Source of the DNA: Blastocatellia bacterium
Lineage (GTDB): Bacteria; Acidobacteriota; Blastocatellia; UBA7656
Length of the DNA: 64,000 nt
Direction of reading: 5' to 3'
Assembly (NCBI GenBank): GCA_963765495.1
Contig: CAVXWP010000002.1
Location: forward strand, 224,001 to 288,000
Shown: one piece after another, positions 5,701-10,986 of the stretch
How positions within the stretch are numbered: position 1 is the stretch's first letter
How the letters are laid out: each line of letters opens with the position of its first letter
Notes under the pieces: model-generated
The model's input: only the letters and a program-made list of their open reading frames with translations
What the model was told of the DNA's origin: nothing
Databases searched by the model: none
Made by a program: the position numbers and the translations under genes

Positions 5701-6954
5701 TCAACCGGATAGATTCCTATCAGCGATTTGATAATGATCGTGATCTGTAGAGGAATTATCTGAAGTATTTTCTTCGGCAGTCCTCACGCTCGCAAGCCCG
5801 ATCATTACCCACAGATGGCGAAAGTCTTCAATATCCTGCCCGAGACCGTCCAGGGCCAGCCCGACGAAACCGCCCCAGAGAGCCAGATCAACAGGGCGGC
5901 TTCTCTTGCGCCATATAATGCTCATAAGCGCTGCAAAGACTGCAAGGGCCGGGAGCCCCAATGTAGCGGCGATGTTTACAAGAGTCATATGAGCATCAAA
6001 GGGCTGGCCGAGATAGAACCCGGGATGGGTGCCAGGCCCACTGCCCCAGAAAGGGCTTCTGACTACCGTGTGCAGAGCTGAGGTGAGAGCCTGATACCGG
6101 CTCGTTTGAGTGGTTGTGTCAAAGTGTATGCTGAAGGGCTGGGTAGGATCGAGCGCAGGTTTCCAGAGCGTAAATGAAGCGATTACACCTACGCACAACA
6201 CAGCGCAAATCACGGCAAACCGTCGGCGCTCTCGCGTGTGCGCGTGCCGGATAATGGCCGCGAGTATGAATCCCAATATTCCCCGCGAAAAGGTAAGCGC
6301 TACGGCAATCCAGAGTCCTGCAAGCGCAGCCCGTCTGAGCCACGGCTGAATATGAGCATCCCTTCGGGCGATAATCGCGGAGGCAAAGATGCAAAAGTTA
6401 GCCAGCAGGTTCGGGTTATAAAAGCCCGCCTGAATGCGGGCATAACGGTTCGAAGGAGTCAACTCGCCGTAGATGCCGATCAGGTTTGTGCCTATCCCAC
6501 CGTAAAACAATAATAATCCCGCCACCCCGGCAGCAGCGACCAGTAGCGAAGAGATTGCCAGGACTTGCGTGACGGAATTCAACACGCGAGGGCAGGATGC
6601 AAGATCGGAGGTTATTAAGGCAAGCGCGCAGAGTTCGCCTATGCCAAGCAGCTTTCTAGCTCCGGCGGATTGATCGGGTGCGGCAAAAAGTAGAGATAGA
6701 GTTGCGGCTACGAGGTAGGCTGAAACAGCGATTTGAGCGGGTGTGAATCGAGACCACTTGCCGGTCCTGACTCGATCAAGAAACCAGAGCGTGGCTGTCG
6801 CCGCAAAGACCGCGTCGCTCCATTGAGCGTGTTCGTGTAGCCAGGGAAAGGGTGGAAACCACGTCCACGGCAGGAGAGCAAGCGTTGTAAGGTATAGCAC
6901 CAAAACAACGCGAGAGAGTTTCGATTGCATCCCGGCGAAGATGGTCATTCCCAT
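5701..6954 (-). CDS. O-antigen ligase (Wzy_C) family membrane protein
   Basis: Multi-TM; FYNPNLLA, LTFSRG, PFWGSGPG, AHMTLV..A..LG motifs. Confidence 0.8.
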   Translation of the reverse strand: MGMTIFAGMQSKLSRVVLVLYLTTLALLPWTWFPPFPWLHEHAQWSDAVFAATATLWFLDRVRTGKWSRFTPAQIAVSAYLVAATLSLLFAAPDQSAGARKLLGIGELCALALITSDLASCPRVLNSVTQVLAISSLLVAAAGVAGLLLFYGGIGTNLIGIYGELTPSNRYARIQAGFYNPNLLANFCIFASAIIARRDAHIQPWLRRAALAGLWIAVALTFSRGILGFILAAIIRHAHTRERRRFAVICAVLCVGVIASFTLWKPALDPTQPFSIHFDTTTQTSRYQALTSALHTVVRSPFWGSGPGTHPGFYLGQPFDAHMTLVNIAATLGLPALAVFAALMSIIWRKRSRPVDLALWGGFVGLALDGLGQDIEDFRHLWVMIGLASVRTAEENTSDNSSTDHDHYQIADRNLSG

Positions 6955-7032
6955 TTCCCCAGGATAAAGAGGCTTTGTGCATAACTTCGATTGCAGGCTG
7001 TCGTGCGAGAGGCTCGAATAGCCGGGCTCAAT

Positions 7033-8238
7033 TCAATCAACAGAAACCGGGGCATCGGAGCGCACAGTATTTTTGGTGGCTCGCTTTCTAGTAGATTTCA
7101 AAGATTGCTGATTAAGCTGAGACCCCAACTGGTTCAGCAATGCTGAACGGTCAGAGATAATCATGTCCGGTTTTATAGCCTTTTCCAGAGCAGTGAGCAC
7201 GCCTGACGAATTTGCAATCTCGCGCAGGGCCTTGAAAGCGGCAAAAGACATGGCGGGGTCACCAAATGGCGAGGATTTCAAATTCATCTTTCCTGACACT
7301 TCAATCTTCTCATCCCCATGAGCAAGCAACCACACAATCGGCTCCATATTGCCCAAAAGGCTAAACGCCCCCTGCGGACTGATTGGGGAATCCATCAATA
7401 AGGTGAGATGGCGGAGCAATAACTCGTCAATCGTTAGTGCCAGCAATATCGACTCCGAAGAAAACTGCAGGAGTGAAAGACGATACGACGGAGCAATCGC
7501 GAGTAATAAATCATCAAGATGACCGTGTTTTCGTGATGCGGGCTTTGCCTCCAACCCGAGGATGTGCGCCGCCCTCTGCGCAAGAGTATCAAGCGCACCG
7601 GGGTCTGACGATTCTTCTCTTAACAGGCGAGAGAAACTTAGTTTTCCGAGTGATCTGGAACAGGAATCGCGGAACGACACTTCTCGCTTTATAACCTCAT
7701 CGGCATCCATTGATGGATGCAGGATCAACGGCAGCATATACGTATTTATGTATTCCAGGTCCAGCATCCCGCTCTCTTGCGCGGTAAACGCTATTTTGGA
7801 GTGAGTGCCTTCGACCTCGCCCGGTCGGGGCGGTAACGACAGACGAAGCGGGCATAGGAAATGCGGGCGTATGGCTATAACTTTGCCTATTCGCGCAAAC
7901 GCATTGAATGGAAAAAGAGCGCACACACCGGGTTTTAGTTCCTTTCCCTGCTCTTTTTCAATCCGGCATAGATTGTCCGAACCAAGTAGAACGCACCCGC
8001 TTGAGGGGGTGGTAAATGTAAGCATACTACCCCGGCGCTCTATAACGGCGCTGCCGAGCAAAGGATATATGGATAACACGGTTCCCATCTCCCTCTTCAG
8101 GCTGCCGCCAAATCCATGTCCTCGACAACAGAGCGCGTTGCATTCAGCGCAAACAAAGTGAAATACGCCGTCAGGAAACGCCATGTAGAGCGATATTTCA
8201 TTGATCTTATCCTTTTTCGAATTCCGAGCCATCACCAA
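7033..8238 (-). CDS. YkgJ-family cysteine-cluster (CxxCxxxCC) protein with C-terminal extension
   Basis: CAECNALCC...C...NLCRI...KPGVCALFPF...CP pattern. Confidence 0.8.
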   Translation of the reverse strand: MVMARNSKKDKINEISLYMAFPDGVFHFVCAECNALCCRGHGFGGSLKREMGTVLSIYPLLGSAVIERRGSMLTFTTPSSGCVLLGSDNLCRIEKEQGKELKPGVCALFPFNAFARIGKVIAIRPHFLCPLRLSLPPRPGEVEGTHSKIAFTAQESGMLDLEYINTYMLPLILHPSMDADEVIKREVSFRDSCSRSLGKLSFSRLLREESSDPGALDTLAQRAAHILGLEAKPASRKHGHLDDLLLAIAPSYRLSLLQFSSESILLALTIDELLLRHLTLLMDSPISPQGAFSLLGNMEPIVWLLAHGDEKIEVSGKMNLKSSPFGDPAMSFAAFKALREIANSSGVLTALEKAIKPDMIISDRSALLNQLGSQLNQQSLKSTRKRATKNTVRSDAPVSVD

Positions 8239-8335
8239 ACCTTTCTGTACGTAATAACACCATTATAAGAGAAACGATACGAACACCCCCTTGAAGCGGC
8301 GGGATCCGAGCCGGCGTGGGCTTACAGGCGAGAAC

Positions 8336-9495: not shown

Positions 9496-10074
9496 TTATA
9501 TGGTACAACAATTTTCAGGGCCACAATCTCCATCCAGAGTCACCGAGCTAAAATGGCAAACGCCTTTTGTGTCGCCGCAGCACTGGCCATTTTGCTCGTC
9601 AGCCTTGCCTCCCGGACATGGAAGCGACTTCACACTATGATTGCTTATGCACAGATGTTTACAACTCACTTTCATCGTGCATCCCGTGGCAGCCTCAGCC
9701 GCCGTAGGCGATATGATCGTAATGACCGAAAGACCGCCGACCACTGCGAGCTTTCGCATCAAATCTCGACGCGATGAGCTGATATTTGCATCCAGAGGCG
9801 GATTCACCCGATCCCTGAGAAGCCGGGCCTTCCCCAGTCGGCGCAACGCAACCCAGACCACTTCATCGTCTACCGGAACACGAAGCTCGCTCCTGATGCG
9901 AGCCGCGATCTCCGGCACGCTCCTCTTCCCGTCGCAACTATGCCAGATCATAGCAGCCGTTTCGTTGAGGCAGTGAGCCTTATCACGATCAAGATCGTAC
10001 ACCAATAATTCGTCTTCATACTCTTCTATCACAAGGCCATCTTCTCTAGCGTGAGGAACCAACTTTGTTTTCAT
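9496..10074 (-). CDS. PqqD/RRE domain fused to twin-arginine-like leader and Cys-rich C-terminal peptide
   Basis: RRE: DELLVYDLDRDKAHCLNETAAMIWHSCDG..S..EIA; then SRRDLMRKLAVVGGLSVITIISPTAAEAA; then 63 aa with 10 Cys; ATG 10074 has a well-spaced GGAG. Confidence 0.85.
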   Translation of the reverse strand: MKTKLVPHAREDGLVIEEYEDELLVYDLDRDKAHCLNETAAMIWHSCDGKRSVPEIAARIRSELRVPVDDEVVWVALRRLGKARLLRDRVNPPLDANISSSRRDLMRKLAVVGGLSVITIISPTAAEAATGCTMKVSCKHLCISNHSVKSLPCPGGKADEQNGQCCGDTKGVCHFSSVTLDGDCGPENCCTI

Positions 10075-10104
10075 CTGTATCATCTCCAAGCGTTTTTGAT
10101 TTAC

Positions 10105-10941
10105 TCAAACTACATTTTTAGCACTGATACTGCTCAAAATAGAATCAGCCATTTCATCGGCTTCGCCCCGCACACCCTTCAAAATGGCTGCTCCAGAGAC
10201 CACCTGCCGCAACATATGAAGCATAGCTTCGGGTCGGTGGCGCGTAGACACTACATTTGCCAACATCGCAAGCGCGGCTCGTGCCTGAGATATGGATCGA
10301 GGCCGCCACCTGGCTCCGGGCCGATATTCGCTTAAGACTACCATGCCTATCGGCAGGGGCCTGGTCCCCGCACGCCCGCCTAAGAGTTCAACCGGATACT
10401 CTTTCGGTCGGTCGCCGCCCTCTTCACGGATGTGTAAATGCAAGGGGTACGGATGGACGCGGCCACGCGCATCAAGAACGGCAAACTCATCAGAATAGTA
10501 GGTTGCGCCCGCCCGCAACAAAGCGGTCACAAGGCTTGTCTTCCCGCTGAAATTCTTCCCCGGAATAACAATGGCCTGTCCACGCCAACCTACTACGCCC
10601 GCGTGTAGAAACATCCTCCGTTGTGTAGCCGCCGCCACATAAGAATGGAGGTCAACGTCAAGATCACAGAGCATCTCATCGAAATCCGTCGTCCTTGACA
10701 ATCTCTGGACGCCCGCATAGAGAATGTTATATCGGCGGAGATTTGCTCGCCCGGTGGCGGGAGGAGCCACGATGGAATACAAATAGTCTACGACGGGCGA
10801 GCGAGCAGGCTTCCAACCGTATGGAAGCCGCTTCGTGATTTTCTCTAATACATCGGCATTGTTCACACGAATCCCTATGCTAAGTCCGTATGCCTGAAAG
10901 GAGATTCCGTCCACCCACACGAGGCGGTCTAGCTTCTCCAG
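10105..10941 (-). CDS. HPr kinase-related P-loop kinase
   Basis: FLHAGVV, Walker A GKNFSGKTSL, YYSDEF; frame open up to CTG at 10941 (ORF track starts at GTG 10920). Confidence 0.85.
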   Translation of the reverse strand: MEKLDRLVWVDGISFQAYGLSIGIRVNNADVLEKITKRLPYGWKPARSPVVDYLYSIVAPPATGRANLRRYNILYAGVQRLSRTTDFDEMLCDLDVDLHSYVAAATQRRMFLHAGVVGWRGQAIVIPGKNFSGKTSLVTALLRAGATYYSDEFAVLDARGRVHPYPLHLHIREEGGDRPKEYPVELLGGRAGTRPLPIGMVVLSEYRPGARWRPRSISQARAALAMLANVVSTRHRPEAMLHMLRQVVSGAAILKGVRGEADEMADSILSSISAKNVV

Positions 10942-10986
10942 TCAGCCGGATTTCCATCGAGATCGTGGCATAAGCACACCATCCAT
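10942..10986 (-). other. 14-codon upstream ORF (MDGVLMPRSRWKSG) in frame with the kinase
   Basis: RBS AAGGAGGA (11000-10993), ATG 10986, TGA 10944-10942 immediately before the kinase CTG. Confidence 0.5.

Follow-up and report, generated by a model that had tools for sequence, protein, structure and literature searches.

What is made by the small group of genes that follows a polysaccharide locus in the genome of a Blastocatellia bacterium? The stretch of DNA analyzed here, called the window, comprises 64,000 nucleotides (nt) of contig CAVXWP010000002.1 (forward-strand positions 224,001 to 288,000; assembly GCA_963765495.1). The genes in question lie on its minus strand and center on a 197-amino-acid (197-aa) protein in which a RiPP recognition element (RRE; RiPP, ribosomally synthesized and posttranslationally modified peptide), an export signal of the twin-arginine translocation (Tat) type, and a cysteine-rich core follow one another. 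Its gene stands between those of an HprK-related kinase and a nucleotidyltransferase, and the three are referred to below as the triad. We give roughly even odds (about 0.5) to the reading that the 197-aa protein is a self-guided RiPP-like precursor, which would be modified in the cytoplasm and leave it via Tat, after which cleavage would release a disulfide-rich mini-protein with a role in the envelope or matrix. The cassette and the parts of the putative precursor are as follows.

10105-10920, minus strand: HprK-related P-loop kinase, 271 aa, with a Walker A motif; matches TIGR04352 below that model's cut-off (E = 9.9e-12).
9496-10089 (stop included), minus strand: putative precursor, 197 aa (RRE, Tat-type signal, and Cys-rich core); PqqD match above the Pfam cut-off.
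9805-10062, minus strand: RRE, a PqqD-like winged helix, residues ~10 to 95; AlphaFold2 (AF2) predicted local distance difference test (pLDDT) score above 90, and Foldseek matches.
9688-9774, minus strand: twin-arginine-type signal, residues 106 to 134 (S-R-R-D-L-M-R-K, a hydrophobic stretch, P-T-A-A-E-A-A).
9499-9687, minus strand: core, residues 135 to 197, with 10 Cys and, by alignment, a near-invariant Thr/Ser135 as its first residue.
8336-9454, minus strand: nucleotidyltransferase, 372 aa; PF14907 (NTP_transf_5), E = 1.7e-26.
7033-8238, minus strand: Cys-motif protein, 401 aa, possibly YkgJ/FliB-like, accessory; CxxCxxxCC near the N terminus, and ESM Atlas neighbors.
5701-6954, minus strand: second Wzy_C protein (O-antigen ligase/polymerase family), 417 aa, accessory; PF04932, E = 5.6e-12.

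A preliminary description of this DNA, made from the sequence alone, had joined the last two proteins and the triad into a single five-gene peptide modification module, and all five co-oriented minus-strand open reading frames (ORFs) are indeed present. The kinase and precursor genes are separated by 15 nt, and the precursor and nucleotidyltransferase genes by 41 nt.

The 197-aa protein matched the Pfam PqqD model with 31.8 bits (E = 1.8e-7; cut-off, 23.4). A search of a 5.8 billion-protein collection returned 129 matches at E ≤ 0.001, of which the best 120 were used further; where their source was named, it was Acidobacteriota and Pyrinomonadaceae, and the annotation was PqqD family or hypothetical. 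The alignment holds 109 sequences, the window's protein and 108 of the best 120, the 12 excluded being the window's own copy and 11 that were shortened, carried a long insertion, or had no core detectable by script. Mean pairwise identity across these 109 was 0.52 in the RRE, 0.43 in the signal, and 0.61 in the A-x-A region, and 0.20 in the core (0.18 at core positions other than Cys). The cleavage site could be placed by script in 110 of the best 120 homologues. Among these, the core held 6 Cys in 55, 8 in 25, and 10 in 18 (98/110 together), odd numbers were few, and the median core length was 35.5 residues, with a range of 18 to more than 60. Where tandem copies occur (two or three per locus), their leaders are 0.52 to 0.94 identical and their cores mostly 0.17 to 0.61, with one near-identical pair at 0.96. 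A conserved leader, a variable core, and adjoining RRE and enzyme genes are the general marks of a RiPP precursor, and with its hypervariable, even-Cys core, the 197-aa protein looks like one. The proposal that the gene encodes a peptide precursor thus finds support in the identity values and the even Cys counts. A search among shorter proteins gave only two matches, so the fusion of RRE, signal, and core is the normal state of the family.

The commonest core spacing, C-x6-C-x6-CC-x3-C-x4-9-C, is that of the knottin framework, and the order C-C-CC-C-C was seen in short members of a 28-sequence alignment. Knottin-type Pfam models matched members of the family, all below threshold (UPF0506 in 13, omega-atracotoxin in 13, and conotoxin in 12 of the 109). 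The family thus resembles knottin (inhibitor cystine knot) mini-proteins in the spacing of its commonest core and in these weak matches; it differs in that the matches are sub-threshold and that the window's own core, a member of a 10-Cys subgroup, has 10 Cys at another spacing.

Residues 106 to 134, between the RRE and the core, have the layout of a cleaved Tat signal, save for their internal position. Position 106 is Ser or Thr in 93/109 members and Asn in 15/109; the twin arginines follow (R107 in 109/109 and R108 in 107/109), and then D/E, L/M/V, V/M/I/L, R/K, and K/R. Downstream of this motif, an Ala/Gly/Val-rich stretch leads to Pro128 (109/109) and to T-A-A-Q/E-A-A, in which A133 is kept in 98/109. 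Thr or Ser occupies position 135, the first or second residue past A-x-A, in 107 of the 109 members, and position 124, within the hydrophobic stretch, in 106. The pattern S/T-R-R-x-hydrophobic-hydrophobic-K/R, a moderately hydrophobic stretch, and A-x-A are all present, as is the Tat machinery in the window's genome (TatC, 219 bits); the short Pfam TAT_signal model matched 1/109 members at E ≤ 0.1. The near invariance of the RR and P-x-x-A-x-A regions implies export following cytoplasmic handling. The leader that the preliminary description placed between RRE and cysteines is there, while its Tat-type nature and its P-x-x-A-x-A cleavage region had been overlooked. We also considered a lipoprotein; by eye, most members have Thr/Ser at -1 and Gln at -4 of the first Cys in place of a lipobox, and this was rejected.

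The AF2 model of the RRE was compared with known structures by Foldseek. The top matches were to the lasso B1 protein TbiB1 (5v1u and 5v1v; target TM score, 0.76 to 0.77; root mean square deviation, 2.5 Å), followed by 6jx3 and then by PqqD (5sxy), so the fold is closest to that of lasso B1-type RREs. The top-matching B1 structures were solved with leader peptides bound. In the full-length model of the 197-aa protein, residues 107 to 116 form a helix and residues 122 to 126 form a strand (pLDDT, 74 to 89). The same helix and strand appear (pLDDT, 68 to 71) in a model of residues 1 to 136, which lacks the core and was built from an alignment of 75 leaders, each cut ahead of its first Cys. DSSP calls a strand only where there is hydrogen bonding to another strand, and without the core the RRE sheet alone remains, so strand 122-126 would pair with that sheet. 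The models thus fit an RRE that grips its own leader, holding the signal strand in its β-sheet as leaders are held in solved B1 RREs. Within the RRE, Cys52 (9934-9936) is invariant (109/109), and His39 and Cys40 (9970-9975) are nearly so (at least 90%).

Related loci were collected by a one-genome-per-species scan. It yielded 200 coding stretches, 78 loci were retained from these, and the window's proteins were run by phmmer against all stop-to-stop ORFs of these loci. The 78 are mainly from Blastocatellia and Pyrinomonadaceae, with single loci in metagenome-assembled genomes labeled Methylomirabilis, Longimicrobiales, Nitrospinota, Chloroflexi, and Terriglobia. A nucleotidyltransferase homologue was found anywhere in the locus in 63/78 and directly downstream of the precursor gene on the same strand in 61/78. 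For the kinase, the corresponding numbers were 49/78 and, directly upstream, 47/78. Both enzymes adjoin the precursor gene in 43/78 loci, or in 39/67 when only loci with room on both sides are counted. Recurring in dozens of genomes, the arrangement lies far beyond chance, and the co-conservation of kinase and nucleotidyltransferase with the RRE-Cys gene holds as had been proposed. The core of the system is the precursor and the nucleotidyltransferase, usually with the kinase. Two side observations concern individual loci: L004 has two tandem kinase genes ahead of its precursor gene (6105-7973), and in L006 three genes, those for the precursor, the 401-aa-like protein, and the nucleotidyltransferase, are split among several frames apiece, which looks like assembly frameshifts or decay.

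The five-gene module fared less well as a unit, since the triad is recurrent but homologues of the 401-aa protein and of the second Wzy_C type were each found in 3/78 loci; both are accessories of the window's small subgroup. The 401-aa protein had been labeled YkgJ. It had no Pfam or NCBIfam match, and the Pfam search remained empty even at E ≤ 1 for it and three homologues, so that a match to PF03692 is absent; the label survives as a lead through the Cys motif and the ESM Atlas, in which the nearest clusters score 0.94 to 0.98 and carry PF03692 in 34 to 41% of members, with FliB_C/FliB-like proteins nearby. Loci with a YkgJ-like gene shared no common core feature. The second Wzy_C protein (46.1 bits; gathering cut-off, 31.7) showed no BLAST similarity to the first Wzy_C of the window. 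By sequence it is a truly extra Wzy_C, and in this family polymerase, ligase, and O-oligosaccharyltransferase look alike. Its close homologues near the triad were confined to L004, L009, and L057 among the 78 loci, and in L009 the gene adjoins those of the WecA-like and 262-aa homologues on the strand opposite to the triad.

The family extends well beyond these loci. When 1.84 billion cluster representatives were searched with a 135-position profile of the leader only (RRE and signal), 9,770 matched at E ≤ 0.001, a number that includes ordinary PqqD proteins, 5,420 at E ≤ 1e-10, and 1,497 at E ≤ 1e-30. Of the 150 top-ranking matches, nearly all cover the profile almost end to end, with lengths of 120 to 338 residues, and a regular expression found the Tat-like motif in 143 of the 148 new representatives among them. 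Among further representatives with a recognizable signal end (n = 141), 132 had an even, nonzero number of core Cys, 5 an odd number, and 4 none. These searches put the family at no fewer than about 1,500 clusters at 50% identity. Across 301 genomes sampled from the window's phylum, 27 had a leader match at E ≤ 1e-10, with one to four matches per genome; these include both other genomes of the window's family and 11/16 in one other family.

Both enzymes keep residues that look catalytic. The kinase aligned with TIGR04352 (HprK-related kinase A) over profile positions 66 to 154 of 280, with 44.5 bits against a cut-off of 200, and in an alignment of 45 sequences the Walker A residues G126 and K127, together with H106 and D144, are invariant. 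In the nucleotidyltransferase, D141, D143, and D169 are invariant across 50 sequences. Excerpts of the work on pseudomycoidin report that PsmN is inactive when D134/D136 are changed, a pair that matches D141/D143 here (PMC6993621). Among PDB sequences, neither the kinase alone nor the kinase and nucleotidyltransferase profiles found a credible match (all at E ≥ 0.17). Our guess at the best candidate acceptor is Ser/Thr135, with Ser/Thr124 as the second candidate.

How does this cassette relate to known systems? In the lasso peptide systems of paeninodin and pseudomycoidin, according to excerpts of two papers, the kinase phosphorylates the precursor and PsmN is required for adding one or two hexoses to the phosphate (PMC8498205, PMC6993621). 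PsmN may make the sugar donor rather than transfer the sugar (excerpts of PMC6993621), and the HprK-type kinases characterized in this branch phosphorylate peptides (excerpts of PMC8498205). The cassette shares with PadeK and PsmK/PsmN a B1-type RRE, an HPr-kinase homologue, and a PF14907-type nucleotidyltransferase; it differs in having no cyclase or B2 protein, in the fusion of the RRE to its substrate, in the Tat-type signal, and in the disulfide-rich core. A Pfam scan of 34 chosen ORFs between 268 and 40556, every cassette gene among them, found no cyclase and B2 pair beside the RRE and no lasso B2, radical SAM, YcaO, or LanM family, in agreement with the absences listed in the preliminary description. 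An Asn synthase at 17925-19904 was examined as a lasso cyclase and set aside: it has a strong, full glutaminase domain and lies 8 kb off among glycosyltransferases, and we read it as a sugar amidotransferase. A C-terminal Ser, the acceptor in paeninodin-type systems, is found in 3/107 family members, and the window's protein ends in Ile. Since cyclase and B2 are missing and the C-terminal Ser is this rare, the cassette is, in line with the earlier claim, not a lasso system, and its acceptor must differ.

The same genome does encode a classical lasso peptide cluster (L092, G000:C1:1256000-1275000; 7086-15327, minus strand). It comprises an Asn-synthase-like cyclase (625 aa), a B2-like protein (156 aa), a B1/PqqD-like protein (99 aa), an HprK-like kinase (336 aa), a PrmA/PRMT-like methyltransferase (382 aa), a PF14907 nucleotidyltransferase (397 aa), and a 622-aa protein read as an ABC transporter. 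Family models support the kinase (TIGR04352), the nucleotidyltransferase (PF14907, 230 bits), and the methyltransferase, and the other labels follow from size, order, and visible motifs.

A second relative is the HPr-rel-A system defined in NCBIfam, for which no characterization was found in the literature searched. It, too, joins a nucleotidyltransferase with a PqqD-family protein and with a kinase of the branch to which that of the cassette belongs (TIGR04352 match of the latter, E = 9.9e-12). In the cassette, the PqqD domain is instead fused to an exported protein and the family thresholds are not reached: the kinase falls under the TIGR04352 cut-off, and only ScmD and PqqD models in NCBIfam match the precursor, all below cut-off. 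TIGR04353, which we take to be the PqqD partner model of HPr-rel-A, gave no precursor match at E ≤ 0.01. The cassette looks like a sister arrangement in which PqqD has been fused to an exported protein.

Two more distant comparisons concern export. Bufferins are Cys-rich RiPP precursors with an N-terminal Sec signal that are modified by MNIO enzymes and use general export with no dedicated transporter. The precursor resembles them in Cys richness and in a general export signal, but its signal is Tat type, internal, and behind the RRE, and its enzymes are a kinase and a nucleotidyltransferase. The Tat signal-binding chaperones TorD, DmsD, and NapD are separate proteins of other folds that serve cofactor enzymes. 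The parallel is a cytoplasmic module that would keep a twin-arginine signal in its grip while the cargo is being readied; in the precursor that part would fall to the RRE, which is fused in cis and whose binding to the signal is modeled only. In the literature searched, with subscription journals outside its scope, no description of a PqqD-Tat-Cys fusion was found, and the set of kinase, PqqD protein, and nucleotidyltransferase appeared in lasso papers only. Judged by sequence, the cassette is real and widespread and its precursor is of a new design; we class it as a variant of RRE-guided peptide maturation that is neither lasso nor HPr-rel-A.

These data suggest a pathway in four steps. In the cytoplasm, the hydrophobic segment of the signal would add a β-strand to the RRE of the same chain and be held there, as in the models. 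This would offer the leader-core junction to the PF14907 nucleotidyltransferase and, at loci that have one, the HprK-related kinase; to judge from PsmK and PsmN, these enzymes could add a phosphate, a nucleotidyl or phospho-sugar group, or both. The modified precursor would then be exported via Tat, signal peptidase would cut after A-x-A, and the cysteines would pair outside the cytoplasm, leaving RRE and signal behind. Tat rather than Sec would suit even a tiny peptide because Tat tolerates bulky or folded, modified cargo. Finally, the product would act in the periplasm or polysaccharide matrix, because the genes adjoin polysaccharide export loci. Candidate roles are those of a lectin-like peptide, a cross-linker, or a partner of the C25 proteins described below; a peptide joined to a glycan has the least support.

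Several observations weigh against this pathway. The signal is not N terminal: its motif begins at residue 106, behind a folded RRE of about 100 residues. Tat signals known so far are N terminal, and to our knowledge an internal one behind a folded domain is without precedent among soluble cargo. The docking of the signal is read from secondary-structure calls in models of moderate confidence, and the window's 10-Cys core was modeled by AF2 at a pLDDT of only 54 to 79. The kinase is missing in about one third of loci (28/71 with room upstream). A Ser/Thr beside the first Cys occurs in 24/37 precursors accompanied by kinase and nucleotidyltransferase and in 13/16 accompanied by nucleotidyltransferase only; being as common without the kinase, it leaves the acceptor site a guess, and the C-terminal Ser that serves as acceptor in characterized relatives is, as stated above, not conserved. 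Resemblance to the lasso enzymes of the same genome is limited, the triad kinase being 33% identical to that of L092 over 49 aa around the P-loop and the nucleotidyltransferase 23% identical over 235 aa (E = 4e-8); between the two RREs no significant similarity was found. The cassette has no dedicated protease or transporter gene. Last, the pathway leaves unexplained the company of polysaccharide loci and C25 peptidases in which the triad is found. The polysaccharide genes of the window, identified by Pfam and NCBIfam, and the gene between them and the kinase are as follows.

11197-11985, minus strand: 262-aa protein, secreted-looking by eye; a recurrent neighbor.
12055-13809, minus strand: WecA-like GT4 initiating transferase with a CoA_binding_3 domain; PF00953, E = 1.2e-35; TIGR02380, E = 2.4e-36, below cut-off.
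32485-34041, minus strand: Wzx.
34093-36522, minus strand: Wzc.
36593-37753, minus strand: Wza.
37750-39243, minus strand: first Wzy_C.
39240-40556, minus strand: TPR protein.

About 12 glycosyltransferases, methyltransferases, a deacetylase, the Asn synthase, and an epimerase lie between Wzx and the WecA-like gene, the latter being the final gene of a Wzx/Wzy-type locus of about 35 kb. Transcription at this end runs from the WecA-like GT4 gene through the 262-aa gene to the kinase, precursor, nucleotidyltransferase, 401-aa, and second Wzy_C genes. The annotation of these same-strand upstream genes upholds the placement of the cassette after a WecA/Wzx/Wzc polysaccharide locus. A promoter and terminator scan of 5000-14000 found sites no more numerous than in shuffled sequence. 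A 66-aa ORF (10929-11129) in the 276-nt gap ahead of the kinase was tried as a hidden precursor and discarded, having no conserved counterpart at related loci. The 262-aa protein had no family match at E ≤ 0.01 in Pfam or NCBIfam; it has a hydrophobic segment at its N terminus and another near its C terminus, and its Pyrinomonadaceae counterpart matches FecR weakly (E = 0.009). Homologues of the 262-aa protein were found in 16/78 loci, and WecA-like matches in 22/78.

Some further genes of the window are recorded here as side observations. Within the polysaccharide locus, 19876-21279 (minus strand) encodes a 467-aa multipass membrane protein with a weak match to PMT_2, an ArnT/PMT-like GT-C glycosyltransferase family (E = 2.5e-5; 25 bits; cut-off, 26.1). 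The epimerase/dehydratase ORF and the preceding glycosyltransferase (13910-15316 and 15006-16253, both minus strand) overlap by about 310 nt; the family match of the epimerase/dehydratase starts at residue ~133, so the gene probably begins within the listed ORF. An ECF sigma factor (3931-4686, plus strand) and an RskA-type anti-sigma factor (4745-5623, plus strand) converge on the end of the cassette. A 204-aa protein at 3084-3698 (minus strand) matches the Rad52/Rad22 family (E = 5.8e-12), which in bacteria is mostly phage borne.

Neighbors within 8 kb were called by a longest-ORF rule and clustered, and Pfam was run on one representative per cluster. Because the rule left the precursor uncalled in 10 of the 78 loci, the counts refer to 69 neighborhoods, those of 68 loci and the window. 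The PF14907 nucleotidyltransferase was a neighbor in 54/69 and the kinase in 39/69. A protein of about 1,000 aa or more with a C25 peptidase domain (E = 1e-77) was a neighbor in 26/69, positioned directly ahead of the kinase or past the nucleotidyltransferase. WecA-like or CapD-like proteins and TPR proteins were each present in 24/69, Wzy_C in 16/69, small FecR-like proteins in 15/69, and Wzc in 13/69. At least one polysaccharide gene was a neighbor in 39/69, and a polysaccharide gene or C25 in 50/69. In about 14 Pyrinomonadaceae loci, genes for a WecA-like protein, Wzy_C, a FecR-like protein, and TPR proteins stand in this order ahead of the triad; the small proteins with weak FecR matches (the 15/69 above) lie between TPR genes directly ahead of Pyrinomonadaceae triads. 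In two complete Pyrinomonadaceae chromosomes, Wza lies 34 kb upstream on the same strand, a large polysaccharide locus again ending with the triad.

The window's own genome has three precursor genes, in the window and on contigs 7 and 1. On contig 7, three C25 giants are followed by a kinase, a 159-aa precursor with a six-Cys core, and a nucleotidyltransferase. The contig 1 copy adjoins the gene of a 1,095-aa C25 protein; it lacks a kinase, and its nucleotidyltransferase lies at a distance of 2.2 kb. All three copies lie 6 to 27 kb from a Wza gene, so that three of the six Wza genes of the genome are involved. The copies on contigs 1 and 7 are ahead of the start of the polysaccharide locus and that of the window is past its end; because placement differs in this way, we favor a functional tie over a shared operon by descent, on counts that ignore kinship. 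The genome encodes 11 C25 proteins, of which 4 flank two of the three precursor genes; no C25 gene was found in the window cassette or, by the own-genome search, on the window's contig. The C25 giants (1,095 to ~2,000 aa, with a C-terminal gingipain-family domain) stand in tandem in L090 (G000:C7:557000-576000; 3-8668), with others at G000:C7:551149 and G000:C1:1215083. The association with polysaccharide loci asserted in the preliminary description is thus borne out in 39/69 neighborhoods and for all three copies of this genome, while the frequent link to C25 proteins had escaped it.

These neighbors suggest a first alternative, in which the 197-aa protein stays uncleaved and anchored in the membrane, as an adaptor or regulator in polysaccharide assembly. 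The ligand of its cytoplasmic RRE would be a peptide from a different protein, such as the tail of Wzc or of a glycosyltransferase, the RR and hydrophobic stretch would be a signal anchor, the Cys-rich domain would be a periplasmic sensor or docking knob, and kinase and nucleotidyltransferase would tune the partner of the RRE. The nearness of all three copies to Wza genes, the polysaccharide gene within 8 kb in 39/69 neighborhoods, the position of Wzc directly upstream of the triad in 13, and the absence of a dedicated transporter or protease from the cassette all speak for it. However, as in cleaved signals, a short hydrophobic stretch gives way to an invariant Pro and A-x-A; a sensor domain is not expected to range from 18 to more than 60 residues while keeping its cysteines alone; tandem copies with differing cores resemble precursor arrays; and AF2 pairs the protein's own signal strand with the RRE sheet. 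We consider an adaptor unlikely, though worth keeping in view.

The preliminary description had gone further, raising the possibility that the peptide is coupled to a glycan linked to undecaprenyl pyrophosphate (Und-PP) through the extra ligase. In the strong form of this idea, the extra Wzy_C would act as a PglL/WaaL-type ligase and join the exported peptide covalently to that glycan; the product would be a glycopeptide, or the polysaccharide would carry the peptide as its anchor or cap. The window does have two unrelated Wzy_C proteins, homologues of the second lie by the triad in L004, L009, and L057, the core opens with an Ala-rich stretch that has a near-invariant Ser/Thr, and Wzy_C belongs to the gene order found ahead of the triad in the ~14 Pyrinomonadaceae loci. 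But the Wzy_C beside those Pyrinomonadaceae triads belongs to the type that ordinarily stands at the start of a locus (it shares 26% identity over 439 aa with the first Wzy_C of the window), and Wzy_C proteins are the standard polymerases of such loci, ligase and polymerase not being separable by sequence here. Because the YkgJ-like gene and the extra Wzy_C type each occur in only 3/78 loci, ligation to an Und-PP-linked glycan is speculation, and we regard it as improbable.

The C25 proteins suggest another explanation, that the secreted, knottin-like peptide is their partner, whether as an inhibitor, a chaperone, or a substrate that they process or transfer. Several knottin families are protease inhibitors. 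A C25 protein directly flanks the kinase or nucleotidyltransferase in the 26/69 neighborhoods that have one, and in the window's genome 4 of 11 such proteins flank two of the three precursor genes. Yet the window cassette and its contig have no C25 gene, and a partnership of this kind leaves kinase and nucleotidyltransferase without a role; we rate it a poor prospect. A bolder conjecture is that Blastocatellia and their relatives build peptide-bearing exopolysaccharides. The knottin-like mini-protein would be phospho- or nucleotidyl-activated in the cytoplasm while its RRE holds it, exported via Tat, and then attached outside the membrane to a lipid-linked glycan, either by a ligase of the Wzy_C type or by a transpeptidase of the C25 type, to serve as primer, cap, or anchor of the matrix polymer. 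This, too, we hold to be a long shot.

Very improbable is a role of kinase and nucleotidyltransferase on sugars, nucleotide sugars, or lipid-linked polysaccharide intermediates with the PqqD protein unrelated to that chemistry, which would suit a cassette inside or beside polysaccharide loci and the suggestion that PsmN itself produces a sugar donor (excerpts of PMC6993621), but which sits poorly with a tight kinase-precursor-nucleotidyltransferase order (gaps of 15 and 41 nt; 43/78 loci) that persists where the flanking polysaccharide genes differ and with the peptide substrates of the HprK-type kinases characterized in this branch (excerpts of PMC8498205).

Should the 197-aa protein prove to be a self-guided precursor, it would represent a large, unstudied class of ribosomal mini-proteins, with at least ~1,500 clusters at 50% identity. 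The class would bring a new logic of leader recognition, in which an RRE is fused to its own substrate and perhaps grips a Tat signal, and a new export route for RiPP-like products. It would also offer a first handle on PF14907 nucleotidyltransferases and HprK-related kinases outside lasso clusters, and its cores would form a natural library of small disulfide-rich scaffolds. For the soil Acidobacteriota, an abundant and poorly studied phylum, the links to polysaccharide export and to C25 proteins point to a role in the envelope or biofilm matrix.

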